From a virus (lineage: Duplodnaviria > Heunggongvirae > Uroviricota > Caudoviricetes): a stretch of 18,142 bases of DNA. This document shows positions 1 through 17,349 of this stretch, in pieces. The stretch's first letter is position 1. Every line of letters begins with the position of its first letter. The notes beneath the pieces were generated by a model. That model was not told the DNA's origin and did not search any database. It saw only the letters and a list, made by a program, of their open reading frames with translations. The DNA is taken from the IMG/VR virus record IMGVR_UViG_2703718802_000010; one strand, written 5' to 3'. Position numbers and translations under genes: made by a program.

Positions 1-405
1 ATGGATCAGGTCGTTGTTTTTCAAAAGATGTTTGAGCAAGTGAGAAAAGAGCAAAACTTCTCCTGGTTTTATTCAGAATTAAAACATCACCGTATTGCAC
101 ATTACATTTATTATCTGGCTACGGATAACATCAGAATTATTACTCACGATGATACGGTTTTGTTATTAAGAGGAACCAGGAACCTGTTAAAAGTTAGTAC
201 GACCAAGAACCCTGCTAAAATAAAAGAGGCCGCATTGCTTCATATTTGCGGAAAATCTACATTTCGGGAATACTGTTCAACACTGGCAGGCGCGGGCGTT
301 TTCCGGTGGGTTACTGATGTTAATCATAACAAACGCAGTTACTACGCCATTGATAATACGCTTTTATATATTGAAGATGTAGAAAATAATAAACCATTAA
401 TCTAG
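1..405 (+). CDS. ycgX: YcgX-like DUF1398-family protein, 134 aa
   Basis: Full ORF starting at window position 1. Translation matches my recollection of E. coli YcgX in length (134 aa) and sequence; sits next to iraM as in the K-12 chromosome. Recall-based, not searched. Confidence 0.6.
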   Translation: MDQVVVFQKMFEQVRKEQNFSWFYSELKHHRIAHYIYYLATDNIRIITHDDTVLLLRGTRNLLKVSTTKNPAKIKEAALLHICGKSTFREYCSTLAGAGVFRWVTDVNHNKRSYYAIDNTLLYIEDVENNKPLI

Positions 406-610
406 CTAAAGTTGGATACTTAAGAAATGCTTCATAATTCAGTAAGGCATTAGCATAATGGAAATAAAAGTGCAGAGACTATCTCTATGGATGATTAATA
501 CTGTCTTTTTATTGTCACCCATAAATAATCACCAGACTAATACTATCAACTTGATATTTGAAATGTGATCACTTGACTTTTGATACGTTATTTTATAACG
601 GTTAACATAT

Positions 611-662
611 TTATAAAAACAACGGCCGTGCCACACGTCCGTTTCAATACTTAACGCACATG
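611..662. repeat. About 50-bp copy of the icd-terminator-like module (imperfect hairpin AACGGCCGTG..ACGTCCGTT plus flank); second copy at 1474-1524
   Basis: Direct comparison: shared blocks aaaacaacgg / cgtg / ccgtttcaata / ttaac / cacatg, roughly 80% identity to the 1474-1524 segment. On the minus strand the hairpin is followed by a T-rich run (gtttttataaat). Confidence 0.6.
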
Positions 663-1010
663 TATTTTGGTTTAGTCATCATCCGGTTATATGTATTTTA
701 GCCAGGAACAGGTTAAATCATTCCTATATAACTCAAAAATTGAAACCTTATTCTCATGTCATGCTTATATTCATTATTATCGTTATATAAAAAGGCAACC
801 ATAATGTTTAGCAAATTGGCACAAAGTAGCATAAAGGCTATGTTTTAATTACAGGATGTTCAGTCATTTGAATGTATAACATTATAGCTAAACAAATCTA
901 AAACGAAGTCAATAATTTATTGCTTTCACAAAATCTCATTTTGTTTAACATCCATTGAGATTCCTTGCTTTAAATTTTATTTTATATAAGCCATCATTTT
1001 AATTAATTTA

Positions 1011-1027
1011 TTTTTTTGAGGGGGGGG
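1011..1027. repeat. Homopolymer pair T7-GA-G8 (tttttttgagggggggg) about 80 bp upstream of iraM
   Basis: Read directly from sequence; a G run of 8 is unusual in an AT-rich intergenic region. Confidence 0.9.
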
Positions 1028-1104
1028 TAATATACTCATATGCAAAATCAAGAAATAAACATCCTAATGAACCATATTAAATACCGTGGGATAAGACATA
1101 ACAA

Positions 1105-1428
1105 ATGAAGTGGATAGTAATTGACACGGTAATTCAACCTACATGTGGTATATCTTTTTCAGCCATATGGGGTAATATGAAAATGATCATCTGGTATCAA
1201 TCTACTATATTTCTCCCTCCTGGCAGTATATTTACACCGGTTAAGTCTGGTATTATCCTTAAGGATAAAGAATATCCTATTACTATTTATCACATCGCAC
1301 CATTCAACAAGGATTTATGGAGTTTACTCAAAAGCAGTCAAGAGTGTCCTCCAGGAGAAAGCAAAATAACAAATAAATGTTTACATAATAGTTGCATTAT
1401 AAAAATATGCCCATATGGGCTCAAGTAA
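1105..1428 (+). CDS. iraM: Anti-adaptor protein IraM (RssB inhibitor, stabilises RpoS), 107 aa
   Basis: 107-aa ORF beginning [24 protein letters not shown], matching my recollection of IraM (YcgW) in length and sequence, in its expected position between ycgX and the icd fragment. Confidence 0.7.
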
Positions 1429-1470
1429 TGGGCTTCATATAAATATGCTCGATATGCTATTAATAATATC

Positions 1471-1507
1471 CACATAAATAAAACAACGGGCGTGTTATAC
1501 GCCCGTT
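1471..1507 (-). terminator. Rho-independent terminator of the icd 3' fragment
   Basis: Perfect 8-bp stem AACGGGCG / CGCCCGTT with 7-nt loop (1485-1507); on the minus strand it is followed by TTGTTTTATTT, immediately downstream of the icd-fragment stop at 1531-1533. Confidence 0.7.
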
Positions 1508-1530
1508 TCAATATTTAACACATGGAGAGA

Positions 1531-1695
1531 TTACATGTTTTCGATGATCGCTTCACCAAACTCTGAACATTTCAGCAGCTTAGCGCCTTCCATCAGACGT
1601 TCGAAGTCATAAGTTACGGTCTTGGCATTGATTGCGCCTTCCATACCTTTAACAATCAGGTCAGCCGCTTCAGTCCAACCCATATGGCGCAGCAG
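1531..1695 (-). pseudogene. icdC: icdC: displaced 3' fragment of isocitrate dehydrogenase, about 52 codons plus stop
   Basis: Minus-strand translation from about 1689 down to the stop at 1531-1533 gives [52 protein letters not shown], the Icd C-terminus. Upstream codons (LEFMVFYILL) are not Icd and there is no start codon, so this is an att-generated fragment rather than a gene. Confidence 0.85.
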
Positions 1696-1700
1696 TATAT
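1685..1700. other. Approximate prophage/host junction (att-derived) where icd homology ends
   Basis: Icd-like translation breaks at about 1690-1697. Exact core sequence cannot be defined without the other prophage end. Confidence 0.45.
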
Positions 1701-1958
1701 AAAAACCATGAATTCAAGTCATTGATATTTAACGATAAAAATTATTTTATTGTCTTTTTATTAGCCAAAATAAACTTTATTCAACCGTTTGATTTCATTG
1801 ACGTTCGTTTTTATTTTGGGGAAAGGTTTTCTCTACCATTTATATCCAAATTACAAGTCTACATTTTATTAACATCTCAATACATGTGAGGCCTTGCAGA
1901 CCTTTGTGAGACCTTATGTGTCTCTGTTTTGTCCCAACTTATGTTAAGAGGCACATAA

Positions 1959-2039
1959 TTAAAAATAAGATAACGATGCCGCCAAGCAGTGCAAAACCTT
2001 GTTTACTCCACGACTGTCTGCCCCATTATCTGCATACAT
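1959..2039 (-). CDS. Candidate small ORF, 26 aa (MYADNGADSRGVNKVLHCLAASLSYF), with a strong Shine-Dalgarno
   Basis: GGAGGA (2050-2045) sits 5 nt upstream of the ATG at 2039-2037; stop at 1961-1959. Not in the ORF track because of its length; no homology recognised. Confidence 0.25.
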   Translation of the reverse strand: MYADNGADSRGVNKVLHCLAASLSYF

Positions 2040-2395
2040 AATTATCCTCCATAACTGAGATAAATGTCGGTTATGAGCGAACAACAGACGTTTAGTTTAT
2101 GATGGCTGTGTCTATACATTAAACATAACATCCATTACCGGCACCGCTTATTAATTGCTATCTGATATTGTCACTAAAAAAATAGGCATTCCCCGATATA
2201 ATAATCACAAAGAAGCTTTTGGTGCTGGCAATCGGTATACCTCATAGTGGACTGCGACTTTCCGGGCACGACAAGGATATATCAATGTATGAGCAGGAAA
2301 ATTAGACCGTGGTGCGTCATATGATGACTAAGCACGGATAACAGCTACTTAATTGAAACTATTGATTATATTACAGCCAGTGCCTTATAGGATGG

Positions 2396-3517
2396 TTAGT
2401 CATCAACCGCGACTCCTGCACAATCATGGGCTATTGCCAGCAATTGTTTTTTAATTGCTTTAGCATCTACCGTCATATCTACTGTAGCAAAATGGATCTT
2501 ATGTCCCTGAGTGACAACATACTCATTAAGCATATAGCCAACAGCTGGATGAAGTAGAAGACCAGCGGCATTGAGCGAAAGCGGATCCGTCTTGTTCTCC
2601 TGTGTTCTAAGGTAGGTATATAGCTGATAAATATAGCCATTACGTAGTGATTGCTCCCGATGCCAACCCTTTGTCAGAATCGAATTAAATTTGGTATCGA
2701 TAATAATACGCCGCTGGGCAGTCTTGTGTTCCAGAATAATGTCTGACTTCATTGTCGGGAAAATCTCTGCACTACCTGCACTTTGATCGCTCAACGCCCA
2801 TTTCAGCTCTTTCCCTGCAGAGACCTGCCAAGTTGTTTTGGCAAGGTGTACACGATATAAGCCAGCGATACCTTTTTCAAATAGTCTTCTCATCCAGTAA
2901 AGGTTATTTGAGGGCGCAGGTAAAAGATATTGGCCTTGATCTTCGGTCGGCATCAGCAGTTCAAAAGCTAATCGTGCGGCATCGACCATCGGTTTATCTG
3001 CGGCATCATGGCGTCCAAAACGCCACACTGAGGGTAATTCGCGGGGGGCAGGATATCCTCCATTTATCCCCTCACGGCGAAGTGATATTGCCATAAAATG
3101 GCAATCTGCCGCCAAAGACGGTTTCACTATGATTGAGGCCAGACGTTCTAACGCACAGCGAACATAGCGATTTCGGGGGGTGTTGAGGGTTATGTCTTGA
3201 AAATGGCAGGCAACCTGTCCCCGTTCCAGCAGTTGATGACTGGCAGTATACAGTATGTCAATGCGCCCTCTCACCCGGTTCAGGGCCGCATGACAAGTTT
3301 GGTATCCCATATTTAAATTGCGACGTCGGCGCAGCGTAATCTCATGAAGGAGGATTGTCGCCACCAGGTCGGGGATTTCTGCTGGGTTATCTTCTACTGC
3401 GATCTGATTGCGCCCTAACTGGCGAAACAGATCTGAAGCGTACAGCATCAGCATCCAGATATTTCGCATGGGAATACGTGATGCTGTATGTTGCTCACTC
3501 CCGGTTATTGTCGTCAT
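2396..3517 (-). CDS. McrC-family nuclease subunit (PD-(D/E)xK-type) of a McrBC-like restriction system, 373 aa
   Basis: N-terminal IPMRNIWMLMLYASD resembles McrC IPVRNIYYMLTYAWG; C-terminal IIIDTKFNS and YIYQLYTYL resemble the McrC catalytic-core motifs. The ATG overlaps the upstream gene's stop in an ATGA 4-bp overlap (3514-3517). Confidence 0.8.
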   Translation of the reverse strand: MTTITGSEQHTASRIPMRNIWMLMLYASDLFRQLGRNQIAVEDNPAEIPDLVATILLHEITLRRRRNLNMGYQTCHAALNRVRGRIDILYTASHQLLERGQVACHFQDITLNTPRNRYVRCALERLASIIVKPSLAADCHFMAISLRREGINGGYPAPRELPSVWRFGRHDAADKPMVDAARLAFELLMPTEDQGQYLLPAPSNNLYWMRRLFEKGIAGLYRVHLAKTTWQVSAGKELKWALSDQSAGSAEIFPTMKSDIILEHKTAQRRIIIDTKFNSILTKGWHREQSLRNGYIYQLYTYLRTQENKTDPLSLNAAGLLLHPAVGYMLNEYVVTQGHKIHFATVDMTVDAKAIKKQLLAIAHDCAGVAVDD

Positions 3518-5496
3518 TTTGCTAATAACACTTTTCTGGCTTCATCGACTTTATTTGGAGCATCGAACCAATATTCGGCGAGCAAAGGGCAGATCTCTGT
3601 ATCAACGACTTGTTCATACCAAGCCTGGGCATCGTTGATTTTTTGGCCGATAGCTGGGGTGACATAGCTGTGACCGATACAAAACTGTGGTCCTAAGGTA
3701 ACATCTTTTGCCAGCATATCGTTTAATACCGTCAGTCGAGATTTGATGAATGCTAACATGTCAAAATCAATTGCGTAATTATAATTTACCCAGTTTCTCC
3801 ACGCGTCATTAAAAGCTGGCTTTAGATCGATAAACGCGAAACGACGGCGCAGCGCTAGGTCAAGTAGTGCGAGTGAGCGGTCTGCAATATTCATCGTACC
3901 GATGATATATAGATTCTCAGGAATGTATATTTTTTCATCAGCATTTTTAGGATAGGAAAGAGATAATGCCTCAGTCGGCGTGCGTTTATCTGCTTCCATC
4001 AACGTGAGTGTTTCACCGAAGATTTGCGCCGGATTGCCACGATTAATCTCTTCAATTATCACCACATATTTCGAGGTAGGATTATTGACTGCAGTTTTGA
4101 TTGCATTTACAAAAGGTCCATCAATTAGCGTCAATTGCCCTTCTTTACCTGGACGCCAGCCTCGAATAAAGTCTTCGTAAGAGAGGTTCGGGTGAAATTG
4201 CACCGCGCTAATACGCTCAGGTGCTTTTTCTCCCATCAAGCAGTACGCCAGACGTCGCGCTAACCAAGTTTTTCCAGTTCCGGGTGGTCCTTGTAATATC
4301 AGGTTTTTCTTGTCGATCAGGCGCTGAAGTGTGAGTTGGATCTTAGCCTCTTCCAAGAAACAGCCATCCTGCACCAGATGACTGATGTCATAAGGAACGT
4401 GGGTGAGTTTTGGCAACAGCGCACTCTCTTCGACAGTTTCCTCAGTTATCGTCTGGGATTCGTTTTTCTCAAAATTCAGGTATTCATAATTTCCGGACTC
4501 GAGGGACTTTAACTCATCATCATTGCATAGTTTCTGTAGATAAAAGTAGATTGAGCTTGTAACAGTTTTGCTCTCAGGATGCTCTACCTTGAATACGTCC
4601 AAGTAGTTTTCTTCCAACTCCGAAGCAGTGAAATAAGGGCCATTTTTTTTCAGGCATAACGCCTTAATTTTATTCAGTAAAGAGGCTTTCCACGTTCTAT
4701 TTGCCACCTCATCTTTAGACTGGCTAAGATCTGTATTCCACGCTGATAAGGAAAGTTCTGGGAAAGAATGAACCGGATAGTTTGGTTGGGTAAAGACCTC
4801 GTTCAGCGCCCGCATAAGACTCAGGTAACTTTGTCCACTACAGCGACCTTTTGCCCCGTTTTTAATGATCTTAATGTTTAACACTGTCTGAATGTAATAC
4901 TGCGACTGGCTATCTAAAGTGGGGTAGAACCAAGGACGGGTCCAGTACAACCCCATGGTGAGATTCCAACCGACATTCATTACTGTAGAAGCGATGTCAT
5001 ATGCGGCAGTGAAGTCTGCAGAGTTAGTATTCTGGTTATCCGCAAAGATCATTGCCTGTGAGAACATTTCCCACAAGCATTCAATGTCATTAGGGTCGCG
5101 TGACTTTTCATAACCAAAGAACCAAGATTTTTGGTTATTCAACAGAGGGATTCCGGCAAAGGAGTCAGGAATCGGTTCGTTCACGCCCAACAAATTCGCT
5201 AGCTTGGCAGCAATAATTTTGCGATTGCTGTCGGTCAAGTTACGATTGAACAAGCCCATAGTAGTAAACGGACAAATGTCTTTTAAGGGAAAGATCTCTC
5301 CCATAATAGATTTGTCCTGCAGATGGGACATTCCTTCCACACCCGAGGCAATTAGATGAATACCTTTGACTAATTCATCTCTACGATTTCGCCAAGTCAG
5401 TAACGCGTTGGCAAAAGCCTCATAAAAACTAGCCCAAGCAAACTTGCCATCATGTTCTGCTGTATCCACGGGAACTCCATTATACTTGTTGAGCAA
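3514..5496 (-). CDS. McrB-family AAA+ GTPase with a long non-canonical N-terminal region, 651-660 aa
   Basis: Walker A LILQGPPGTGKTW (residues about 401-411), Walker B VVIIEEINRGN, then GTMNIADRS and ALRRRFAF, all McrB-type motifs. The roughly 375 residues before the AAA+ domain are not recognisable as the canonical McrB DNA-binding domain. The track start at 5496 is a TTG with no SD; a GTG at 5469-5467 preceded by GGAG (5478-5475, 5-nt spacer) is the more likely start. Confidence 0.8.
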   Translation of the reverse strand: MLNKYNGVPVDTAEHDGKFAWASFYEAFANALLTWRNRRDELVKGIHLIASGVEGMSHLQDKSIMGEIFPLKDICPFTTMGLFNRNLTDSNRKIIAAKLANLLGVNEPIPDSFAGIPLLNNQKSWFFGYEKSRDPNDIECLWEMFSQAMIFADNQNTNSADFTAAYDIASTVMNVGWNLTMGLYWTRPWFYPTLDSQSQYYIQTVLNIKIIKNGAKGRCSGQSYLSLMRALNEVFTQPNYPVHSFPELSLSAWNTDLSQSKDEVANRTWKASLLNKIKALCLKKNGPYFTASELEENYLDVFKVEHPESKTVTSSIYFYLQKLCNDDELKSLESGNYEYLNFEKNESQTITEETVEESALLPKLTHVPYDISHLVQDGCFLEEAKIQLTLQRLIDKKNLILQGPPGTGKTWLARRLAYCLMGEKAPERISAVQFHPNLSYEDFIRGWRPGKEGQLTLIDGPFVNAIKTAVNNPTSKYVVIIEEINRGNPAQIFGETLTLMEADKRTPTEALSLSYPKNADEKIYIPENLYIIGTMNIADRSLALLDLALRRRFAFIDLKPAFNDAWRNWVNYNYAIDFDMLAFIKSRLTVLNDMLAKDVTLGPQFCIGHSYVTPAIGQKINDAQAWYEQVVDTEICPLLAEYWFDAPNKVDEARKVLLAK

Positions 5497-5600
5497 TGAT
5501 AATTTATCTGTGTGAGTTTTAACATATTACTATCAGTTATAGAAAAATTTAACTATCCGATACAGAGAGCGGAATGCTGAATTTGACCTGACTTGCTTCC

Positions 5601-5634
5601 AACCAATTAAAATCAACTTATTTATCAATTGGTT
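5601..5634. promoter_or_regulatory. Perfect 8-bp inverted repeat AACCAATT-N18-AATTGGTT upstream of the McrB-like gene
   Basis: Read directly; lies about 110-140 bp upstream of the McrB-like start in the 330-bp tfa/McrB intergenic region. Function (operator or hairpin) unknown. Confidence 0.3.
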
Positions 5635-5829
5635 ATTTTGGCACATGGCGGTCATCAAGGCAATATCGCGTTGTCATAAGGTGTCGAGGCTCGGAGGTTC
5701 AAATCCTCTCATACAAAAAATAAATAAAATTAATGACGGTTGGAAATTATTCAATACACTCTCGAAAGTACATCAGCCAACCGCAGCACGTTATTGCATA
5801 TAACGTTTCTGCGGCATATCACAAAACTA

Positions 5830-6414
5830 TTATTCCATAACAGGGATTGCAGGCCACTCAATATCAGGTGCAGTTGATGTATCAACACGATTCAGCAACA
5901 CCCGATACTTCTTCCAGGCTTCAAGCAACGAGGTTTCTTCCTCCGTTGCGATTTCCAGATCTGCAGCATCCTGAAGCGGGGCAATATGCTCACTGGCTAC
6001 CTGCATCAGGCTGTTTTTTGTTTCTTCCGCCTCCCGGATCCGGAACAGTTTTTCTGCTTCCGTATCCTTCACCCAGGCTGTGCCGTTCCACTTCTGAAAC
6101 TCCCCTTCCGGGGATAACCAGGTGATATTTTCCGGTAGAGGTCCGAGTTCAGAAATAAATAACGAGTCGCCGGAAGCCACGTCATAGACGGTTTTTCCCC
6201 GATGATCTTCAACGAGATGCCACGATGCCTCATCACTGTTGAAAACAGCCACGAAGCCTACCGGAATATCTGGCGGTGCAATATAGGTACTGTTTGCTGG
6301 CAGACCTGTATGAGGCGGAATATATGCGTCACCTTCACCAATAAATTCATTAGTTCCGGCCAGCAGATTATAAATTTTTATGGTCCGTGGTTGTTCACTC
6401 ATTCTGAATGCCAT
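5830..6414 (-). CDS. tfa: Tail fibre assembly protein Tfa, 194 aa
   Basis: Near-identical over its full length to my recollection of phage lambda Tfa ([24 protein letters not shown] ... [10 protein letters not shown]). Confidence 0.85.
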
Positions 6415-9266
6415 TATGCAAGCCTCACAATGTAGTTAAATGCGATGTTTTTGACGGTGTTTTCCGCGTTACCAGCAGCGTTAACGGTGATGGTGTGTCC
6501 ATGTGAGCCAATCGCAACGGAGTGCGTATGAGCACCAATACCGACAGTATGTGCATGTGCGCCTGCGCTTGCAGCAGTGCCGGACAGCGAGTGGGTATGA
6601 GCACCATCTGATGATGTCTTCCCTGCATTACGAGTCTGGCCACTACCGCTTGTTGTGCTCATAATCCCCGCGCTTAGATTTGAAATCGCGGTATAACCAT
6701 TAGGGAAAATGCTCGTGTTCGTGCCACCAAATGCACCGGAACTCTTGTGTTGGTGCGCACCGGCACTATTTGCGGTCCCGCTAATACTATGGGTATGCGC
6801 CCCGGTGTTATTCGTGGATTTGGTTCCGTAATCAAACGACGATGTGGTTTTCGTCCCCAAATCCGTACTGGATGCGCTGGCGCTGTGGGTGTGCGATTTA
6901 ATGCCGTCCTGTTCCTGAGACAATACGGCCCGACCACTGGCAGGTTTGCCCTTAATCGTCCAGCCACGCATATCAGGGATCACGCCTGACGGATAAGCGG
7001 CTGCAAGTTTCGGGTAAGCAGATTTGTCAAAAGTCTGCCCCTGCATCAGGGCATAACCAGACGGAACGGTATCTGATGGCCACGGGATTGGTGCGCCGAC
7101 TGGGTAGCTTTCTGGTGGAAGATTTTTCGAGGTATAAACTTCTGCCCAGCCTTCCTCAAAACCATAACCGTCTCTTGAAGAACGGTAGAACAGACCACCA
7201 TTTCTGTAATGCGCCTTCATCTGCAGGGTCCGGCAACTTCCGACTCCGGTATAGAAGTTAACCAGAATATAGCTGTCGCCAGAGCGGGTGACATTGTAAG
7301 CGCCTGATTCGGCATTCCAGGGAACGCCACCATCCGCATCGGCATATGTATCCGTTGCCCTTCTGGCAAAAGCAGCCACATGCGCGGCGGTTAAAGTAAT
7401 ATCTTTGGAACCATCAAATGGAACACCGGATATTTTTCTTGCAGTCTGGAGTTTTGTAGCAGTTGCAGCATTACCAGTGGTGTTCTGATTACCCGTAGTG
7501 TTTACACCTGGAAGGTTAATATTTGCAGAACCGTCGAAAACAACTCCACCGATAGATCTTGCCGTCTGCAATTTCGTGGCTGTACTTGCATTACCATTCA
7601 ATGAACCAGTTAATCCACCTGTAACAGACAACGGACCTGAAACTGTTCCTCCGGTTGTTGGCAGTGCTCCAATATCTGATGGTGTAGGTTTCTGATGTGA
7701 GCTATACATCGTATAAACAACACCATAGGTAACGCTGGAAGGCTTACTCGCTGAATATGTTGGCGAGGTATAAACAGAAACTGACGCATTTGCAGTACAA
7801 TCCCAATGGATATTTACACTCGTCGCATAATTGCCAATCTCAACGTAAATATCATATGTATCGCCGGATGTGTTGATCCAGGCGAAATTCGTTAATCCGA
7901 CGGCTGTACGCTTCCACAAAGCCCCGGTAATTCCTTTGGGGTTTCCATTGCCTGCTCGTAGAACCAGTTCTGAAATGCCTGCCTGATGTGGGGAACCGAC
8001 GTTGTAACCAGCGCCACCAATCAATGCGATGTAAACGATGGAACTCGCTTGTGGCATGGTAACCGTAGCCAGTTTGAACCACCCAGCCCCGCCAGAGAAA
8101 GACATCGTTACTGAATTTAAAGTACCAATATCTTTCGGCGTTAATGTTATATCCGCAGTCAGTGCTTTTCCGTTAACTTTTCGGTTAGATGGCACCCTGC
8201 TATTCGCATTGTCATTGGCTGCTTTAACTGCTTTTGGCGTTGCGGCCAGCGATTCACTGGTGCTATCAACAGCACTGCTAAGTTTCACAACACCTTTAGT
8301 TGTAAGGCTTGCGTCTTCCATCGCAACTGCACCGGCAATCTCTTCAGCACGATCAGCAGCAGCTTCCGCACGGGTCGCAGCGGATTCAGCAGTAGTTTTG
8401 CTCTGAGATGCCGCCGTCGCACTGCCAGCTGCCTCTGTCGCCTTCGTGGATGCTGTCGTGGCGCTGCCTTTCGCTGCTGATGCCTGTCTGCTCGCCTCAT
8501 CTTTTGAAGCAGACGCAGATGATGCCGATGACGCCGCCGAACTGGCGGACGATGCAGCTGCCATTTTTGAGGATTCTGCACTGGTTTCCGAGGCTTTCGC
8601 GTTCGTTTCGGATGTCTTCGCTGCGGATGCAGACCTCGCTGCTGCGCTGGCCTGTTCAGCGGCTTCGCCAGCCTTCGTTGTGGCTGTTGAAGCAGACGAT
8701 GCGGCGCTTTCTGCCGATTTTCCGGCGGCGGTGGCACTGGCTGAGGCCTGCCCGGCACTTGTTGACGCGGCACTGGCAGACGACGCAGCCGCTGTTTTTG
8801 AGCCTGCCGCAGCCGAGGCGCTCTGTCCCGCTGCCGTTTCAGAAGACCTGGCGTTTGTCTCAGACGTCTTTGCCGCCTTCGCGGAATTGCCTGCCGCCGT
8901 TGCCGAGGAAGCGGCACTACTGGCGCTTGATGATGCGTTCGTTTCTGATGATTTCGCTGCCTCTTTTGAGGCCGCCGCATCCCGGGCTGAGGTGGCTGCT
9001 TCTGACGCCTTCGTGGTCGCGGCGGATGCAGAAGTGGCTGCTGATTGTTGTGACGCTGCCGCATTCGTTTCTGACGTTTTCGCCGCACCGGCACTGGTAG
9101 CTGCCGCGCTTTTTGAGGACTCTGCAGCAGCAGCACTTTTTGCTGCTTCACGGGCCTTTGTCGATGCCGTTCCTGCGCTGGAAGACGCTGACTGAGCCGA
9201 CGACGCGGCCTGCCCGGCTGACGTGCTGGCGGCACGTGCTGAGCCTGCAGCATCGGTTATTACCAC
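6414..9266 (-). CDS. stf: Side tail fibre protein Stf, 5'-truncated, 950 codons
   Basis: N-terminal Ala/Ser-rich AAKTSETNA-type repeats and C-terminal HxH-rich tip ending [11 protein letters not shown] match lambda Stf. Homology begins at a position equivalent to about lambda Stf residue 135; an in-frame stop lies just upstream (9285-9287) and the GTG at 9266 has no SD, so expression is doubtful. Confidence 0.7.
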
Positions 9267-10116
9267 TTCCCGGATCGCTATACGCTATTCCGTTAAAGAT
9301 AATGGGCGGAATAATGATTTGACGGTCAAAGTTATGATCATCGCTGATGGTGACTGTAACCGTCCCGTTTGGTGTTTCCGTATTACCCCACGTACCAGCC
9401 TGTTTCGGGAATGATTTGGATACAGCTTTAACGAAGTCACCTCTGACCTGAGTCGCCTCCAGCATGCCCTTAATCGTACAGTTTTCATTTACCGTGACAT
9501 TGTTGAGCGTCCCGGCGTTCGCATTCACACTGCCACTGATATCCGCATTTTTAGCGGTCAGCTTTCCGTCCGGTGTCAGGGAAAATGCCGGTGGATTTCC
9601 ACCGCTGGTAATGGTGGGGGCCGTCAGGCGTTTCAGGAACACGTCGTTCATGAATATCTGATCGCCCTGACCAACAAACATCGGTTTTGTGTTGCCATTC
9701 GCAGGATTAACCATCGCAATCCTGTCCGCCGCCAGCAGCACCTGACTCTGCATGCCGTCAGGGGTGTTCTCAATATCCACGATGGCCTCTTTTTCCGGTA
9801 CATGCTGCACGGCGGTGATGGCATACGTGCCGTCGTCGTTCTCACGGATACTCACGCAGCGGAACAGGCGCTGGCGCAACGTCGGCAGCTTCAGCCCCCA
9901 TACGCTGTATTCAGCAACGCCGTCAGGAACACGGCTCACTTTCACCTTCACGCCGTCGGTGACGGACTGAACCTCCACGCTGACCGGACTCCCCTGCCCG
10001 TCAACCAGGCTTATCAGCGTGGTGCCGGAAGATGGCAGCGTGATTTCACGGTCGAGCGTCAGCGTCCGGGTCTGGCTGTTTACCGCCAGCACGCGCCCGC
10101 CGGTGCGGATACCCAA
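9148..10116 (-). pseudogene. J: Internal fragment of the tail tip / host-specificity protein J
   Basis: Translation [28 protein letters not shown] ... [12 protein letters not shown] ... [11 protein letters not shown] matches the lambda J C-terminal region as I recall it. It lacks the J N-terminus and most of the protein, and its last ~40 codons read out of frame into stf. Confidence 0.65.
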
Positions 10117-10334
10117 GCTGGAGTGGCGAACGTTTTACCCTTGCTGATGAGGTATTCACTGATTTCGCTGTACCACATGTGGCTGAGTGCATTCTGGGAA
10201 AGACTGCGTCTCTCGCGCCACGGTTTAAGCACCATGCGAAAGCATTTGCCGTCCTCCAGATAAGGCTGGATCTGCCGACCGATAGCGGTGAAGTTACCGC
10301 GATGCAATTTGATACCATCTTGTGGGAGGTTCAC
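10080..10334 (-). pseudogene. NinB/YbcN-family gene, 5' part only (about 72 codons), truncated by fusion to the J fragment
   Basis: MNLPQDGIKLHRGNF ... RSLSQNALSHMW carries the NinB-type RSL(D/S)QN motif. GTG start at 10334 with SD GGAGGTGA upstream. The reading frame runs into the J-fragment sequence around 10117-10125. Confidence 0.5.
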
Positions 10335-10528
10335 GCTTCACCTCCGCAGAGATCAAACGCTGGATGCAAAATATCGCAGGTGCATTTCTGCATCTGTGAA
10401 TGGAGAAGAGAGGTTGGATTGTATGTGCGCATAAACGTCCCCGTTTAGCGCAGAAGTCACCGGAGTTGTTCAGGCCCCAATGGCATGATTATGGCTGGTT
10501 GATTATTGGAAATCAAATGTGCTGAAAA

Positions 10529-11038
10529 TTAGTCTGCCAAGTCTTCCTCAGTCGCAACTGGGTAATTCCAAATATCAAAAAAAGCTATAGCCTCCTGCCA
10601 TTTGCTCCATAAGTTATCAAGTACTTGTGTAGGTTCCGTACTTTTAAAAACAGAATCAGCCGCATCACCGTTATGAACTTCCTCGTACAGTTCCATTATT
10701 AGCAGATTAACAAAGTACTGTTTCAACATTAATGCCTGATTACCTTCTTTCTGCTGGCTATCCTGCTTGATGATCTCCATCGCCCGTACTAGGCACCTGA
10801 TGATATCCGCTGCATCATTAACGCTCCATTCAGATCCGCGCTTATCTTTAGCTGATGAATTGGCTCTCTCAGCGCAAGCCTTTAAAGACTCATAAAGGTA
10901 AACTCTATTTTGTAGCTGCAGCGCTTTTTTTGACGTGTACCAACTTGCAAGCGCCGACCCCGCTGCGGCTAATGTGCCAAACGCAGAAATACCTGCTGCT
11001 ATTGCACTTAAGTCGGCACTGTCAAAGTTCCACATCAT
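10529..11038 (-). CDS. Hypothetical protein, 169 aa, with a single N-terminal hydrophobic helix
   Basis: ORF with predicted transmembrane segment LSAIAAGISAFGTLAAAGSALASWY followed by a hydrophilic domain; AT-rich upstream region. No homology recognised. Confidence 0.5.
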   Translation of the reverse strand: MMWNFDSADLSAIAAGISAFGTLAAAGSALASWYTSKKALQLQNRVYLYESLKACAERANSSAKDKRGSEWSVNDAADIIRCLVRAMEIIKQDSQQKEGNQALMLKQYFVNLLIMELYEEVHNGDAADSVFKSTEPTQVLDNLWSKWQEAIAFFDIWNYPVATEEDLAD

Positions 11039-11296
11039 CGTTACACCTTATATAAATACCCCTCAGTAATATCCAATAAGGTATGTGCACAATCAATATA
11101 ATTTTATCCGTATCGGCACATAGCGATTTGAACGCTACTGGTAATGGTATATTTTAGATTATATCGTCCAGTTTACAGCACCCGTATTTTATGAAATGGA
11201 CTCGCATATTACCCAAAAAATGCCAGCACTTCCGTCATCGTAGAATGCTGGCAGTATTTCTAACTAGTGACTTTATTGGAACAGATTCTGACGGAA

Positions 11297-11596
11297 TTAT
11301 GGTAACACTCGACTCCACTTATCATCCAGCCACGGCTGGAATTTTACATGTGCCGTTTCTCTGGCGAGGATTGCTCGCGCTCTGTTGAGTATCTGGGGAT
11401 ATTCTTGCTCGATAGAAGTAAAGCGGCCGGCTTCGCGGTGCTCCGCAACCTGAAGTAGTGGAGTAACGTTCTGGCAGGCAGTTAACATCACATCACCTGC
11501 TCGCCATAACCAAGCACGTGCACAAAGTTTGTTATCAGTGAATTGTTTTGTGATTGGGTATTGTTGAACTGCTAGAACGAGAACGCCAGCATCCAT
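11297..11596 (-). CDS. Hypothetical protein, 99 aa (possibly a gene remnant)
   Basis: ATG-initiated ORF with a weak SD; no recognisable domain. Confidence 0.3.
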   Translation of the reverse strand: MDAGVLVLAVQQYPITKQFTDNKLCARAWLWRAGDVMLTACQNVTPLLQVAEHREAGRFTSIEQEYPQILNRARAILARETAHVKFQPWLDDKWSRVLP

Positions 11597-11707
11597 TGGC
11601 AGTCCCTATAGTAAAACCATAGCTCAGGACGCTTCGTTCAGGATAGATAATTTTATTGTACTTACCTAACTTTCTTACTATAGCACGGTTGAAAAAGTGA
11701 TTATTAC

Positions 11708-13234
11708 TCAAAAATAAACCTCACCATCAACCATATATTTGAGAGTACTTATCGCCTGCTGGGCGGATATTGTTTTCATTAAAGGATAGTGTTTAAAAAC
11801 AATGCCATTCATAAAATAGATATCACAGGTTTTATTATCTGTATTGATTATGATTTTTTCGAATGTTTTATAGGCAAGTGTACGACATAGCTCTCGCCCA
11901 TTTTTACTGGTTAAGTCAATAGCATGAAAATCACCAAGTGAACTCACCGCTTTACTCTTCAAAGTTTTTAATGATACAGAAGCCCTTCGTAATTCCTTAT
12001 CTAATACTCTGATTTTTTCTGCTATAGCGGTAACTTCAGGCGCAACAGATAATGCAGCAATTAAATTATTAATTTTCATCTGGAGCTCAATAATTTTCAA
12101 CTCTAAAGTTTCATTAGCATCTTTCTTGTTTTCAACTGGTTGGATTTTACTACAATTAAAAAGCAACTCATTAATGATATTATAATCAACCAAATCTCTC
12201 TTTATTGATGGCCTGTCACATCGATGCAGTCTTCTCATCGGACAAACATAATAGCCATGCAAACTTCCAGATACCGCATGAACAATCATGGTATTACCAC
12301 AAGCCTCGCACTTCATAACTGTTCGAAGTAGATTTATCAACATAGGATTTTTGCTACTATTGCTAATACCAAAAGGTGCCAACCGAATTTCCTGCACAGC
12401 GTAAAACAAATCATCTGATATGACTCTGGGATAATAGCCAGCGATTTCACTTATTCCTTTACCTCTTGCACGATATGAAGGTACGCATATACCTATCAGA
12501 GCTTTATTCGCTAATAATTTTTCAATTACAGAAGGTCCCCATGCACTTTCTTTTCCTGAGAAATTCTTTACAGCATGATCATTTAAATACTTGGCTATTG
12601 CATTCAATGAGCGCCTTTCCATCCTGAGTTTAAAAATTAGCTCAATAGTTTTCACCCTGTCGGGGTCTGGAACAAAAGCCGTTCTTTTGTCATCCAATGA
12701 GAGCCATCTCGGACAAGACGCCGTCATAATCGTGCCTGACTCCAGTGCATCCTGCCGTTTTTTCTTCCATGATAATTTAACCCGACTTGACTTTATCTCG
12801 CTTTCTTCATTTGCCCTTTGTGCTATAAGTATGGCTTTTATTAATGAATATGGCTCATTCAATGAGTCAATATTATAGACTGTATTATCGCAAAGAGTTA
12901 TAACATCAATACCGTGATTCAAAATCAATTTCAGACGCTCAATCGCCTCACCGACTTTTTCTCTTGAAAGTCTGTCCAGACTTTCAACTAACAATGTAGT
13001 CCCTGGCAATATATAACCATGTTCTATAGCATCTAAAAATTCCGAAAAAGCTCCTGATTGTGCATGCTTTCCATTGAATGCGCTTAACCCCAAATCTTCA
13101 TACGTTACGGTATCAAGGTAATAATCACTATTTACCTTTAGCCATTCAGTAATAAGCCTTCTCTGGCGGTTTAATGAATCACCAGACATCTGACTTGGTG
13201 ATGAAAATCGCATATATGCTATGGCTTTTTTCAT
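11708..13234 (-). CDS. ybcK: Large serine recombinase (resolvase catalytic domain, recombinase domain, zinc ribbon), YbcK-like, 508 aa
   Basis: N-terminal AIAYMRFSSPSQ ... SLNRQ is a serine-recombinase catalytic motif; C-terminal Cys cluster (CEACGNT ... CPMRRLHRC). Length and adjacency to emrE match my recollection of DLP12 YbcK. Confidence 0.7.
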   Translation of the reverse strand: MKKAIAYMRFSSPSQMSGDSLNRQRRLITEWLKVNSDYYLDTVTYEDLGLSAFNGKHAQSGAFSEFLDAIEHGYILPGTTLLVESLDRLSREKVGEAIERLKLILNHGIDVITLCDNTVYNIDSLNEPYSLIKAILIAQRANEESEIKSSRVKLSWKKKRQDALESGTIMTASCPRWLSLDDKRTAFVPDPDRVKTIELIFKLRMERRSLNAIAKYLNDHAVKNFSGKESAWGPSVIEKLLANKALIGICVPSYRARGKGISEIAGYYPRVISDDLFYAVQEIRLAPFGISNSSKNPMLINLLRTVMKCEACGNTMIVHAVSGSLHGYYVCPMRRLHRCDRPSIKRDLVDYNIINELLFNCSKIQPVENKKDANETLELKIIELQMKINNLIAALSVAPEVTAIAEKIRVLDKELRRASVSLKTLKSKAVSSLGDFHAIDLTSKNGRELCRTLAYKTFEKIIINTDNKTCDIYFMNGIVFKHYPLMKTISAQQAISTLKYMVDGEVYF

Positions 13235-13489
13235 GGTGACACCTGCTAAAGTATGCTTTTATAAACCTTAGTGGTGAGATATGATTTTTGTTTAATTTTT
13301 ATTTAAAAAGACAATTAAGGTCACATTATCTTGAATATACAACAATAATCGTATTGCAATTTTCTTACACCATAATCTTGAAAGCACAAAAGAATGAATA
13401 AAAACTAAAGACATTAACAAAAAGCATAAAACGAGGCCCATATAAATATACGAGCCTCCATATTTTAGTCGTTTAAAAACAAATTATTT

Positions 13490-13822
13490 TTAATGTGGTG
13501 TGCTTCGTGACAATAAATTAATAACCAACACACCGGCACAAATCAACATCATGCCTATAATGGCTGGCAGGTCCAACCGTTGGCCGAAAAATCCCCATGA
13601 TAGTAAGCTAATCAGGACAATACCGACTCCTGACCAGATAGCATAAGCAATCCCTGTAGGAATATAAGCCAGCGTCTGAGCTAATAACCAGAATGATGCA
13701 CAATAACAAATAATTGTACCAACAGATGGCCATAACCGTGTAAAACCTTCTGAAAACTTCATTAAGGTTGTACCAATGACCTCTGCAAGTATTGCACCAC
13801 CAAGATAAATATAAGGATTCAT
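13490..13822 (-). CDS. emrE: SMR-family multidrug efflux protein EmrE, 110 aa
   Basis: MNPYIYLGGAILAEVIGTTLMKFSEGFTRLWPSVGTIICYCASFWLLAQTL ... LSRSTPH matches EmrE. The longer 128-aa track ORF has an upstream in-frame extension that I reject in favour of the MNPYIYLGG start. Confidence 0.9.
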   Translation of the reverse strand: MNPYIYLGGAILAEVIGTTLMKFSEGFTRLWPSVGTIICYCASFWLLAQTLAYIPTGIAYAIWSGVGIVLISLLSWGFFGQRLDLPAIIGMMLICAGVLVINLLSRSTPH

Positions 13823-13889
13823 AGCATATTCTTTCCTGTTCAAACTGGAGAGAATTGTACTACAGTTTGAACTCAACTCACCTGTTTCA

Positions 13890-14192
13890 TCATTGTGTAC
13901 CCATTGATGTTCTTTTATATACCCTCAATACCCGTTTCATCGCGGCACTCTGGCGACACTCCTTAAAAATCAAATTCGTGCTCACCTTTCCTTCCCATTC
14001 TTCTCTGGTAGCGAACCGATAATACACCGTTCGCCAGACCTTACCATCAACGACTAGGATTCCTGCCCGCGCCATTTTAGCCGCAGCCTGATTTATGCTG
14101 GTTACCGTTGCGCCTGTTACCGCGGCAACGTCCTGCGCACAGAATTTCTTATGAGTCCCCAGGTAATGAATAATTGACTCTTTGCCCGTCAT
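13890..14192 (-). CDS. ren: Ren protein (Rex-exclusion resistance), lambda-like
   Basis: MTGKESIIHYLGTH ... VTSINQAAAKMARAG ... VWRTVYYRFATREE matches lambda Ren as I recall it; start overlaps the P stop. Confidence 0.8.
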   Translation of the reverse strand: MTGKESIIHYLGTHKKFCAQDVAAVTGATVTSINQAAAKMARAGILVVDGKVWRTVYYRFATREEWEGKVSTNLIFKECRQSAAMKRVLRVYKRTSMGTQ

Positions 14193-14890
14193 ACCCTTGC
14201 TCCTTTCAGCCCAAACTTAGCTTTGATTTCTGCGATCTTCGCCAGAGCCTGTGCACGATTTAGAGGTCTACCGCCCATGACAGGAAGTTGTTTTACTGGT
14301 TCAGGTATAGCCTCACCACGGTTAATTCGTGCGGTCATACAGGACAGTTCATCGGCAGCCTTGCGCCGTAATTCCGCGTCAGTCAACGCATTGGCCCGCA
14401 TGTTCTGATACAGGTTGGTAACCAGCCAGTAGTGCGCGTTTGATTTCCACGGATAAGACTCTGCATCCGGATACAGCCCGCGCTTCCGGCAATACTCGTA
14501 AACCATATCAACCAGCTCGCTGGCGTTTGGCAGCCCGGCGGTAACGGATGCTTCTTCCCGGCACCAGGCGACAAACTGCCCGGGTGATGGCAGGAATGGT
14601 CGATTCTGCCGACGGGCTACGCGCATTCCAGCGTTAACCTGTTCCATTGTGGTGATCCCGTTTTCCCGAAAAGCCAGCACCCACTGGCGGCGGATTTCGT
14701 TCAGTTCGTTCTGGTCACGGTTAGCCAGGCTCGCCGGGAAAGTTGCCAGTAACTGGCTGAACACACCGTTGATGATCTGCGCTACCTGCTGTACCTGTGG
14801 CTTTTCGTCATACTGTTCCGGCATGTTGTTGGCGATCCGACGCATCTGCTCACGGTCAAAGTTAACCATCTGTGCGGCGATGTTTTTCAT
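14189..14890 (-). CDS. P: Replication protein P (DnaB-helicase loader), full length, 233 aa
   Basis: Near-identical over all 233 aa to my recollection of lambda P (MKNIAAQMVNFDREQMRRIANNMPEQYDEKPQ ... KFGLKGA). Confidence 0.9.
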   Translation of the reverse strand: MKNIAAQMVNFDREQMRRIANNMPEQYDEKPQVQQVAQIINGVFSQLLATFPASLANRDQNELNEIRRQWVLAFRENGITTMEQVNAGMRVARRQNRPFLPSPGQFVAWCREEASVTAGLPNASELVDMVYEYCRKRGLYPDAESYPWKSNAHYWLVTNLYQNMRANALTDAELRRKAADELSCMTARINRGEAIPEPVKQLPVMGGRPLNRAQALAKIAEIKAKFGLKGARV

Positions 14891-15135
14891 AGATCCACCC
14901 CGTAAATCCAGTCAGTGTTTGTCAGGTCGAGTTTTGGTTTGCCGACTGTCACGCCAGCCTGTTGCTTGTTCCGGTTGATTTCGAGCTGGGTCCACTTGTC
15001 GCGGAGTTTGGCCGGACTCAGCACGTTACCGGACCAGAAGTTGTCCTGGCAGGCCCAGCGGAACAGTACACACATGTCGCGGTGGTTACGTCCATCACGT
15101 TCACGCATCAGACGGATATCGTTAGGCGCGATCAC
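14887..15135 (-). pseudogene. O: C-terminal fragment (about 82 codons) of replication initiator O
   Basis: Ends KPKLDLTNTDWIYGVDL, which I recognise as the lambda O C-terminus. The N-terminal origin-binding domain and the ori sequence region are absent; an in-frame stop lies upstream. Confidence 0.65.
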
Positions 15136-15249
15136 TTTCGTCTACTCCATTACAAAGCGAGGCTGGGTATTTCCCGGCCTTTCTGTTATCAGAAATCCAC
15201 TGAAAGCACAGCGGCTGGCTGAGAAGATAAATAACAAACAGGAGGATAT

Positions 15250-16314
15250 ATGAGTCAGGTTGGTAATCATTCATTCGAATTTCCGGCATCGCAAGGTGTA
15301 CAGGGTGGTACTGTTACACTCTTCCTTACCATACCAGGAAGATCGCTGGCTCGTTTCCTCGCTTCAGATAATTACGGCCATACACTGGAACGCTCTCAGC
15401 GAGAAATTAATCCAAATCGAGTACGAAAATTTTTAAATTATCTCACTAACGCAGACTCAAGAAATGAGCCTTTTATCATTCCCCCTCTCGTAGGTAACTG
15501 TGATTCGAATATAGAATTTGTACCGTTTGGCAACACAAATGTTGGTATAGCCAGAATTCCCCTCGACGCCGAAATAAAACTTTTTGATGGTCAACATCGT
15601 GCAGCTGGCATTGAGATATTTTGCCGAAGTTCCCCATCAACGCTCATGGTTCCCATGATGCTTACAATGAATCTGCCGCTAAAAACCCGGCAGCAGTTCT
15701 TTTCGGACATAAATAACAACGTTTCTAAGCCATCAGCGACCATCAATATGGCGTATAACGGCCGGGATGATATTGCTCAGGGAATGATATCCTTCCTGAC
15801 CCAACATACTGTATTTGCCGATATAACCGATTTTGAACACAACGTAGTGCCATTAAAAAGTAATATGTGGGTGAGTTTCAAGGCACTCACTGATGCAACG
15901 TCAAAGTTCGCTAGGAACGGCAATCAACAACTTGAAATGGGATATATAGAATCTGTCTGGGAGGCATGGATTACACTAACTCAGATTGACTCAATCCGAC
16001 ATGGTGTACACCACGCTACGTACAAGCGCGATTATATTCAGTTCCATGGAGTAATGATTAACGCTTTCGGTTTTGCGGTTCAACAGATGATGGTTAATCA
16101 TTCCATCGCAGAAATAACTTCTATGATCGAAAAACTATGTGCAACTACCAGCTCTGCAGAAAGAGAGGATTTTTTTCTGATGGATAACTGGGCGGGGATC
16201 TGCACGAAAGCCAGCCAGGAAAAACTATCTGTTATTGCCAATGTGGCAGCGCAGAAAGCAGCAGCAAACAGACTGATACAAGCTTTTACCAAAGGAAGTC
16301 TGGAAACAACTTAA
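15250..16314 (+). CDS. DGQHR-domain protein (DndB-like, ParB/sulfiredoxin-fold superfamily), 354 aa
   Basis: Contains the exact motif FDGQHR (KLFDGQHRAAGIEIF) at the position typical of the DGQHR/DndB family, and the length fits. Strong SD (CAGGAGGA) 6 nt upstream of the ATG. Confidence 0.65.
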   Translation: MSQVGNHSFEFPASQGVQGGTVTLFLTIPGRSLARFLASDNYGHTLERSQREINPNRVRKFLNYLTNADSRNEPFIIPPLVGNCDSNIEFVPFGNTNVGIARIPLDAEIKLFDGQHRAAGIEIFCRSSPSTLMVPMMLTMNLPLKTRQQFFSDINNNVSKPSATINMAYNGRDDIAQGMISFLTQHTVFADITDFEHNVVPLKSNMWVSFKALTDATSKFARNGNQQLEMGYIESVWEAWITLTQIDSIRHGVHHATYKRDYIQFHGVMINAFGFAVQQMMVNHSIAEITSMIEKLCATTSSAEREDFFLMDNWAGICTKASQEKLSVIANVAAQKAAANRLIQAFTKGSLETT

Positions 16315-16467
16315 TGAATCAACATTGTCTCATATCAGCATGCTGTACGGCGTCTTTAAGGAACGGTGAGCATGAAAAACAAAATCATCATGGAGCTACA
16401 GGCTCCTTTTTTATTATTCGCATTCACCCTCAAGCGTATTAACCAACAATTCAGGGATTAATGAAAG

Positions 16468-16686
16468 ATGGCAGACATCATTGATTCAGCATCAGAAATT
16501 GAAGAATTACAGCGCAACACAGCAATAAAAATGCGCCGCCTGAACCACCAGGCTATATCTGCCACTCATTGTTGTGAGTGTGGCGATCCGATAGATGAAC
16601 GAAGACGCCTGGCCGTTCAGGGTTGTCGGACTTGTGCAAGTTGCCAGGAGGAGATCGAACTTAAGAACAAACAATGGGGACTGTGA
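16468..16686 (+). CDS. TraR/DksA-family C4 zinc-finger protein, 72 aa
   Basis: CCECGDPIDERRRLAVQGCRTCASCQ has the CxxC-N17-CxxC arrangement of phage TraR/DksA-like proteins. Confidence 0.7.
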   Translation: MADIIDSASEIEELQRNTAIKMRRLNHQAISATHCCECGDPIDERRRLAVQGCRTCASCQEEIELKNKQWGL

Positions 16687-16733
16687 TGGCTTCAAAGCAG
16701 CAAATTTCAACATCGTCCAACTGAGGTGTAAAA

Positions 16734-16973
16734 ATGTTCAGAATCATTTTTCCTAACACCTGGTACGTCGACCACCACGGCACTCCCTGCAAAATCCTGC
16801 GTTCTACCCACAACAAAGTTCACTACATCCGAAAAGGCAGAACATGTATCGCCAGCATGTTCCGCTTTAATCATGACTTTGAACCTGTGAATAAAGCTGA
16901 TGCAGATCGGATAGCAGAAGAGATCGAAACGGCAGAACACATTAAGAAGTTACGTGCCATACGCAGGAAATAG
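16734..16973 (+). CDS. Hypothetical phage early protein, 79 aa
   Basis: ORF with SD GAGGTG 6 nt upstream; co-oriented with xis and int. No domain recognised. Confidence 0.45.
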   Translation: MFRIIFPNTWYVDHHGTPCKILRSTHNKVHYIRKGRTCIASMFRFNHDFEPVNKADADRIAEEIETAEHIKKLRAIRRK

Positions 16974-17112
16974 AAAAATTGATAAATTCAATACTGCATT
17001 ACTCAGCATTAAATTTATCTCTATGACCAGTCAAGAGATGTACCTGCCATGAGCTTAATATCATGTCAGATATATCGGTCACAAACTCCCTCAGCAGCTA
17101 AGAGGAGGACAA

Positions 17113-17349
17113 ATGTCTCGACTAATCACTTTACAGGACTGGGCTAAAGAAGAATTTGGGGACTTAGCACCAAGTGAGCGAGTTCTGAAAAAATACGCGC
17201 AAGGGAAAATGATGGCCCCACCCGCTATAAAAGTTGGTCGCTACTGGATGATTGACCGAAATTCCCGTTTTGTAGGAACGCTTGCAGAACCGCAACTCCC
17301 AATAAACGCAAACCCAAAACTCCAACGGATAATCGCTGATGGCTGCTAG
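17113..17349 (+). CDS. xis: Excisionase Xis, lambda-like
   Basis: LITLQDWAKEEF ... PPAIKVGRYWMIDRNS resembles lambda Xis (YLTLQEWNARQ ... PPPVKDGREYLFHESA). SD AGGAGGA upstream; 3' end overlaps the int start. Confidence 0.75.
   Translation: MSRLITLQDWAKEEFGDLAPSERVLKKYAQGKMMAPPAIKVGRYWMIDRNSRFVGTLAEPQLPINANPKLQRIIADGC

Follow-up and report, generated by a model that had tools for sequence, protein, structure and literature searches.

A probable mobile McrBC-family restriction cassette with a DUF8425 head beside attR of an icd-integrated prophage remnant in Escherichia coli

The Caudoviricetes record IMGVR_UViG_2703718802_000010 (IMG/VR) is an 18,142-nucleotide stretch of DNA, referred to here as the window, which carries at 2396..5496 on its reverse strand two overlapping genes for a McrB-like AAA+ GTPase and a McrC-like nuclease. 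From sequence comparison, we consider it probable that these genes form a working restriction cassette of the McrBC family (type IV, GTP-dependent) that moves horizontally and is held here as cargo beside attR of an icd-integrated lambdoid prophage remnant of Escherichia coli. Both genes are intact, with a complete predicted McrB GTPase module and an intact predicted PD-DxK nuclease. The McrBC type is a known kind of system, with an ordinary motor and nuclease in this case, and what is new is the uncharacterised, widespread, presumed target-reading head of the McrB-like protein.

Organization of the cassette

The cassette and its parts are as follows (positions in the window, strand in brackets; aa, amino acids):

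2339..5577 (no strand assigned): mobile 3.2-kb cassette, delimited by cross-genus DNA homology (blastn)
5470..5577 (-): upstream DNA travelling with the cassette, with a Shine-Dalgarno sequence GGAG at 5478..5475; conserved with the Pectobacterium and Salmonella-type loci
3514..5469 (-): mcrB-like gene, probably 651 aa from GTG 5469; maximal open reading frame (ORF) to TTG 5496 (3514..5496, 660 aa)
4726..5466 (-): DUF8425 domain (aa 11-257), mostly helical and very conserved; presumably the head that reads the target or has a regulatory role
4477..4725 (-): DpnI-like winged-helix (wH) domain (aa 258-340), with recognition helix T313-SSIYFYLQ-K322
4366..4476 (-): acidic low-confidence linker (aa 341-377), with a predicted local distance difference test score (pLDDT) below 50 at residues 347-366
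3517..4365 (-): McrB-type AAA+ GTPase and lid (aa 378-660)
3514..3517 (-): ATGA stop/start overlap of mcrB and mcrC, read from the sequence
2396..3517 (-): mcrC-like gene, 373 aa from ATG, with PD-DxK nuclease residues D259, D274 and K276

The McrB-like GTPase and its start codon

Residues of the McrB-like protein are numbered throughout in the 660-aa frame. Hidden Markov model (HMM) search of the protein gave a match to AAA_5 (E=8e-27), and profile search matched residues 378-652 to the GTPase structure of EcoKMcrB (6hz4, E=5.6e-76), to which the GTPase is 47% identical over 282 aa by BLASTP. Walker A (GPPGTGKT, 403-410) and Walker B (EE, 482-483) are seen in the 6hz4 alignment, as are the GTP-specific NxxD motif (N536-I-A-D539) and an RRR cluster at 550-552; the AAA+ GTPase expected of the McrBC family, bearing both Walker motifs and NxxD, is present. 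PF28529 McrB_lid is annotated on homologues. The McrB equivalog model NF008457 reached 262 bits (cut-off 637), and its match covers aa 378-654 only.

An earlier reading of the window, made from its sequence only, had given the mcrB-like gene as a 660-aa ORF. That ORF exists from TTG 5496, and a start at GTG 5469 with a protein of 651 aa is more likely, because GGAG (5478..5475) is followed after 5 nt by this GTG, with the spacing conserved among homologous loci, and because the Enterobacter homologue has ATG at the same position and no in-frame start upstream. RefSeq WP_000379040.1 is also 651 aa, and residues 1-10 of the AlphaFold2 model have pLDDT below 50. The same reading had described the pair as AT-richer than the nearby tail-fibre gene stf, in agreement with the GC contents (mcrB 43.4%, mcrC 47.3%, stf 53.2%).

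The McrC-like nuclease and translational coupling

The product of the second gene matches PF10117 (Pfam McrBC, E=5e-21) and scores 356 bits with the NCBIfam McrC equivalog NF007277 (cut-off 338). Its alignment with EcoKMcrC runs from end to end, showing 24% identity across 352 aa and the D...DxK residues in register, and D259, D274 and K276 are invariant in an alignment of McrC homologues. The gene is accordingly predicted to encode McrC as a subunit of its own, made up of an N-terminal region that binds McrB and a PD-(D/E)xK nuclease. The proposal from the sequence-only reading that the two proteins are McrB-like and McrC-like was borne out by these HMM matches together with those of the GTPase.

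The two ORFs (3514..5496 and 2396..3517, both on the reverse strand) share 4 bp at 3514..3517, as had been claimed, and the identical 4-bp overlap is found in the independent gene calls of all three of the Enterobacter, Pectobacterium and Salmonella-type loci, so that it is conserved in four genera. The order of mcrB upstream of mcrC with close coupling, as expected of McrBC, is present, and the overlap implies translational coupling of the two predicted genes. RefSeq places the McrC start at Met17, which would abolish the overlap. We take the ATGA start to be the right one because S13-R14-I15-P16, ahead of Met17, does not vary in the homologues from Enterobacter and Pectobacterium, Enterobacter has Leu in place of Met17, and the overlap recurs in three other loci.

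The N-terminal head of the McrB-like protein

Residues 1-377 gave no match in our local copy of Pfam even at E=10; precomputed annotations on homologues name DUF8425 (PF28527), DpnI_C, AAA_5 and McrB_lid. Residues 1-378 were modelled by AlphaFold at pLDDT 85.5, and DUF8425 alone (residues 11-258) at pLDDT 92.9 and a predicted TM-score (pTM) of 0.91. Its invariant residues include N84, R85, W177 and D195. The roughly 370 N-terminal residues, whose nature the sequence-only reading had not recognised, are unrelated to the DNA-binding domain of EcoKMcrB and are the most informative part of the protein. A divergent EcoKMcrB N-domain was ruled out as the identity of DUF8425 by hhalign against EcoKMcrB residues 1-161 (probability 0.04%), and the N-terminal DUF3578/ADAM domain, which binds 5-methylcytosine and would mark an EcoKMcrB orthologue, is lacking.

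The winged helix is homologous to that of DpnI (DpnI_C), a feature of the DpnI-type winged-helix readers of N6-methyladenine (6mA). DpnI builds its 6mA methyl pockets and recognises GATC with residues E228, K229, R231, Q232 and Q235 (PMC3424567). These five positions align without gaps to S314, S315, Y317, F318 and Q321 of the McrB-like protein, so that only Q235 is kept and the methyl-pocket and GATC residues of the DpnI-type 6mA readers are otherwise missing. The loss of the Gm6ATC reading set fits residence in E. coli, a Dam+ host.

The DUF8425 family comprises at least 2369 clusters at 50% identity. Fusion to a McrB-type AAA_5 domain is found in 53 of 56 long members, and a DpnI-type wH in 18 of 70 aligned DUF8425-McrB proteins; one sampled member has Mrr_N in the place of the wH, and many have an extension of about 155 aa that is unassigned. 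From this near-universal fusion and the minority of proteins with a wH, the DUF8425-GTPase unit looks like a constant core to which winged helices are optional additions.

Comparison with known systems and proposed mechanism

The cassette resembles EcoKMcrBC (K-12 mcrB/mcrC, immigration control region) in having two overlapping genes with mcrB first, in its Walker A, Walker B, NxxD and arginine-cluster GTPase motifs, and in the conserved PD-DxK residues of McrC. It differs in carrying DUF8425 and the wH (about 370 aa) where EcoKMcrB has DUF3578/ADAM (161 aa), in the low identity of its McrC (the 24% given above), and in its location as prophage cargo at icd rather than in the hsd-mrr region. 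Compared with the C-terminal wH of R.DpnI (PDB 4esj/4kyw), the cassette wH has S, S, Y and F in place of E228, K229, R231 and Q232, and it is fused to a GTPase, whereas the DpnI wH is fused to a PD-(D/E)XK nuclease. Proteins of the architecture 'NTD-wH-NTPase' (N-terminal domain, winged helix, NTPase) with McrC-like subunits have been listed as putative type IV systems (Helbrecht et al. 2024, PMC11037411); the E. coli member differs from that class in being without the Gm6ATC motif that was used there to choose candidates. RefSeq already labels the pair 'AAA family ATPase' and 'McrC'.

By analogy with EcoKMcrBC, whose mechanism is summarised in PMC11090510, the McrB-like protein would form GTP-dependent hexamers, into whose ring McrC would plug and stimulate GTP hydrolysis; complexes bound to DNA would translocate and cut where two of them meet or stall. 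The target would be chosen by the N-terminal head, that is DUF8425 with the DpnI-homologous wH, and not by the 5-methylcytosine reader of EcoKMcrB. Given a Dam+ host and a wH without the DpnI contacts to Gm6ATC, we infer that the cassette most likely targets a modification of foreign DNA, or a sequence context, that (Dam/Dcm-methylated) E. coli DNA does not contain. A more specific proposal can be put forward only tentatively: that DUF8425 is a new kind of reader of DNA modifications or lesions which defines a large McrBC branch, and that the E. coli cassette restricts phages or plasmids with a modification not covered by the known type IV enzymes of E. coli (McrA, McrBC, Mrr, GmrSD) and tolerates Dam and Dcm methylation.

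Limits, distribution and selection of the cassette

Homology by blastn spans 2339-5577 against Pectobacterium (86.6% identity), 2365-5565 against the Salmonella-type locus (87.0%) and 2463-5427 against Enterobacter hormaechei (69%). In Enterobacter and Pectobacterium the pair stands alone among metabolic genes, outside prophages. In the Salmonella-type locus it lies, again outside prophages, in a CP4-like island with CbtA/CbeA, RadC, antirestriction and AlpA genes. Judged by gene neighbourhood, occurrence both in a CP4-like island and in stand-alone islets is typical of defence cargo. Beyond the cassette in the Salmonella-type island lies a gene for a 1345-aa protein (13389-17426 of that locus) with faint NACHT and DUF8371 matches; this NACHT-like neighbour may be a defence gene.

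Within E. coli, the 3.1-kb module was found in 305 of 5426 complete genomes (5.6%), with at least 99% identity and always on the chromosome, and in 289 of these 305 a single piece covers 80% or more of it. Strain ML35 (NZ_CP025747) has an IS3 insertion sequence (IS) within the module. The sequence-only reading had allowed that its proposal might fail on insignificant family matches or on the pair being a common, characterised type IV system of E. coli; the family matches are significant, and the pair is fairly common but we found no paper that characterises it.

Ratios of nonsynonymous to synonymous substitution (dN/dS) were computed against the Salmonella-type and Pectobacterium homologues. 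In the McrB-like protein they were 0.09-0.11 over the GTPase, 0.12-0.17 over DUF8425 and 0.13-0.24 over the winged helix, and McrC gave 0.15-0.17. The linker gave the highest value against the Salmonella-type homologue (0.28) and reached 0.23 against that of Pectobacterium. Both genes are under purifying selection.

Upstream of mcrB, a promoter-like element was read by eye, consisting of TTAAAT (5552..5547), a 17-nt spacer and TAATAT (5529..5524). The intergenic gap between mcrB and the tail-fibre assembly gene tfa is 333 bp (5497..5829). The sequence-only reading had described it as about 330 bp with structured elements of its own, which is borne out in part: the gap does hold a strong hairpin directly after tfa and a second 8-bp inverted repeat. 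Folding of the whole spacer was no better than that of its shuffles (z = -0.66), which gives no sign of a structured RNA there. A tRNA or tRNA-derived att site in the spacer was considered on account of a tRNA-like 3' fragment at ~5655-5725 (+) with the T-arm string GGAGGTTCAAATCCTCT, and was rejected, with neither ARAGORN nor Rfam making a call. The fragment lies near the end of the homology to tfa-downstream DNA of other prophages.

The carrier prophage and the slot at attR

The features that place the cassette in its prophage are:

1533..1697 (-): icdC, the duplicated icd 3' end, which marks attR and so the prophage end; it reads ...AIIENM and a stop, and is 99.9% identical to the K-12 icdC region
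1698..1944 (no strand assigned): attR-proximal prophage arm, common to many icd-integrated prophages with other cargo
1945..2338 (no strand assigned): E. coli-specific spacer from the attR arm to the cassette, co-occurring with the cassette
5830..6414 (-): tfa (tail-fibre assembly), the final phage gene ahead of the cargo (Caudo_TAP, E=7e-44)

Positions 1..1697 of the window are 99.9% identical to K-12 ycgX-ymgL-ymgK-iraM-icdC (blastn). To the left of icdC lie iraM and ycgX, and the far right end of the window holds xis and a partial int. The icdC stub matches the icd 3' end at the e14 attachment site at 87% (blastn), and its counterpart in strain FORC 064 is annotated as a partial isocitrate dehydrogenase. 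The module is also present in FORC 064, where the order is ycgX-iraM-icdC-[IS66]-mcrC-AAA ATPase-tfa-...-xis-int-icd, from which we conclude that the element is integrated in icd with the module just inside attR. In that strain the IS66-family element lies just inside the attR arm (window 1935-1947), and the DNA corresponding to window 6543-14791 is deleted.

The module lies between tfa and the icdC stub, the position of mcrA in K-12 e14, and gene order at icd agrees with the earlier placement of the pair in this attR-proximal slot. Description of the carrier as an e14-type prophage holds for the integration site, at the icd 3' end with an icdC duplicate at attR, and for the integrase family, the integrase being about 57-60% identical in protein to e14 IntE (tblastx); it does not extend to the prophage DNA. 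By blastn against e14, the only long match was the chromosomal flank 1..1697, and no prophage DNA matched besides the icd 3'-end similarity at the attachment site. Tfa is about 35-45% identical to TfaE of e14 (tblastx), and comparison of the window with K-12 e14 detected no homologues of pin, mcrA, lit or the ymf genes. An e14 backbone with swapped cargo is ruled out by this lack of DNA homology.

EcoKMcrA of e14 resembles the cassette in occupying the equivalent slot, from the tail-fibre region to icdC at attR, and in being a modification-dependent restriction gene. It differs in being a single-chain NEco-HNH enzyme unrelated in sequence to the cassette, and the two carrier prophages share only the icd-3'-end similarity and the chromosomal flank. 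The suggestion that mcrA had been exchanged for an McrBC system was overstated, since the slot holds other cargo as well. The first ~240 bp inside attR (1698..~1940) were matched in 1466 genomes at 91-98% identity, always beside icdC, and the DNA past this arm varies, with sitABCD in ST131-type strains, an acetyltransferase gene, a helix-turn-helix gene and ompT in O157:H7, and mcrA in K-12. On these comparisons the attR-proximal end is best described as a general cargo slot and not as the site of a specific mcrA-to-mcrBC exchange. At least 80% of 1698-2395 (698 bp running up to icdC) is covered in only 301 genomes. Within the E. coli-specific spacer, a small ORF lies at ~1966-2046 (-), 26 aa from an internal ATG (MYADNGADSRGVNKVLHCLAASLSYF) and preceded by GGAGGATAATT.

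The prophage content comprises a J-tip fragment, stf, tfa, a P22 Ant fragment, a large serine recombinase, a small multidrug resistance (SMR) transporter, a Ren-like gene, lambda P and a DndB/DGQHR gene, the J fragment, stf and tfa being the only structural genes left. Since head, tail and lysis genes are missing, we regard the element as a remnant of about 16.5 kb; the carrier is an icd-integrated lambdoid prophage remnant, heavily degraded.

Alternative explanations

Several observations weigh against a functional and mobile restriction cassette. Searches of isolated phage and plasmid collections did not return the module, and similarity there was at the AAA+ level only. A consensus promoter scan of the upstream region found nothing above shuffle expectation, leaving the element read by eye (TTAAAT matches the -35 consensus at 3 of 6 positions) as a weak consensus match that the scan did not flag. 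PADLOC 2.0 reported no system model, with generic REase_II matches on the AAA+ part only and none for McrC. We found no experimental study of this gene pair in the published literature, and none showing restriction by any DUF8425 McrB; the sole purification attempt for the NTD-wH-NTPase architecture class failed, with no activity data given (PMC11037411). Finally, mean column identity within DUF8425 is 69% (21 distinct sequences), which is atypical of a specificity domain, and such high conservation may mean that the domain does something other than read bases.

That the pair is a silent or decaying passenger, a remnant in a dead prophage without current function in E. coli, is favoured by the heavy degradation of the prophage, the IS insertions and deletions in some strains, and the failure of the consensus scan to find a strong promoter. 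This is very improbable, because both ORFs are intact with all catalytic motifs, every domain is under purifying selection, at least 80% of the module is kept in one piece in nearly all of the carrier genomes (289 of 305), and the cassette persists in several genera and contexts. A different account keeps the cassette active and makes it 6mA-dependent, with the DpnI-like wH reading 6mA in ApT, as DpnI, HhiV4I and other wH-fusion enzymes do, though here outside GATC, and with DUF8425 structural or regulatory. Homology to the DpnI wH, the invariant Q321 that corresponds to DpnI Q235, and the experimental standing of prokaryotic wH domains of this family as 6mA sensors (PMC11037411) argue for it, but we consider it unlikely: four of the five DpnI contacts are replaced, the mark was called unclear for wH proteins without the motif (PMC11037411), and most DUF8425-McrB proteins have no wH, which cannot therefore be the core reader of the family.

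It is rather doubtful, too, that DUF8425 has a distant, base-flipping HhH-GPD/Ogg-like fold and itself reads, or acts as an enzyme on, a base that is hypermodified or damaged, in which case the system would sense the hypermodified DNA of phages (glucosyl-hydroxymethylcytosine, deazaguanines, Mom-type adenine). Matches of DUF8425 to 8-oxoguanine glycosylases were weak and below significance, a motif resemblance was seen by eye, and neither was confirmed by profile comparison. Against E. coli endonuclease III, hhalign gave a probability of 0.4% and aligned a different segment, and searches of PDB and Pfam with DUF8425 returned no sequence match at E up to 10; the significant fold or profile similarity and the HhH-GPD motif that would place it in the HhH-GPD DNA glycosylase superfamily were not found. 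A McrBC-family restriction cassette whose target is chosen by the DUF8425-wH head is the reading that we prefer.

Other features of the window

Further genes of the prophage remnant are:

11708-13234 (-): large serine recombinase, 508 aa, in an AT-rich patch
13490-13876 (-): SMR-family transporter, in the AT-rich patch
13890-14192 (-): Ren-like exclusion protein, in the AT-rich patch
15250-16314 (+): DndB-like/DGQHR-domain protein (Pfam DndB, E=4e-46; phrog_7901, unknown function), in the early region, three genes upstream of xis and int

The AT-rich patch (11600-14200, GC 32-40%) looks like a separate insertion within the prophage. The DndB-like/DGQHR gene may be another defence or anti-defence gene. 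The tail-tip J fragment lies at 9148-10116 (-) and the P22-type antirepressor fragment at 11297-11596 (-), with head, tail and lysis genes missing. The N-terminal third of the tail-fibre protein (8285-9266) is an Ala/Ser/Thr-rich low-complexity repeat with a GC fraction of 0.58-0.63 and gives spurious long ORFs in other frames. The sole Rfam match was IS009 (RF02111) at 5873-6000 (-), with 132.6 bits against a gathering threshold of 117; it lies inside the 3' coding part of tfa and is cut at the edge of the searched stretch.

Significance

About 1 in 18 complete E. coli genomes carries the cassette, and the locus shows that icd-integrated prophages exchange defence and fitness cargo at a slot in their attR-proximal end. 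We regard the cassette as of moderate interest and as no surprise in principle. If active, it would put one more obstacle in the way of phage therapy cocktails, of the transformation of wild E. coli and of gene flow from strain to strain. Thousands of McrB homologues throughout the bacteria have DUF8425 as their head, and the E. coli member offers a tractable entry to this large and unstudied branch of McrB; once its specificity were defined, the whole branch could be annotated, and a new modification-dependent enzyme for mapping epigenetic marks might be gained.

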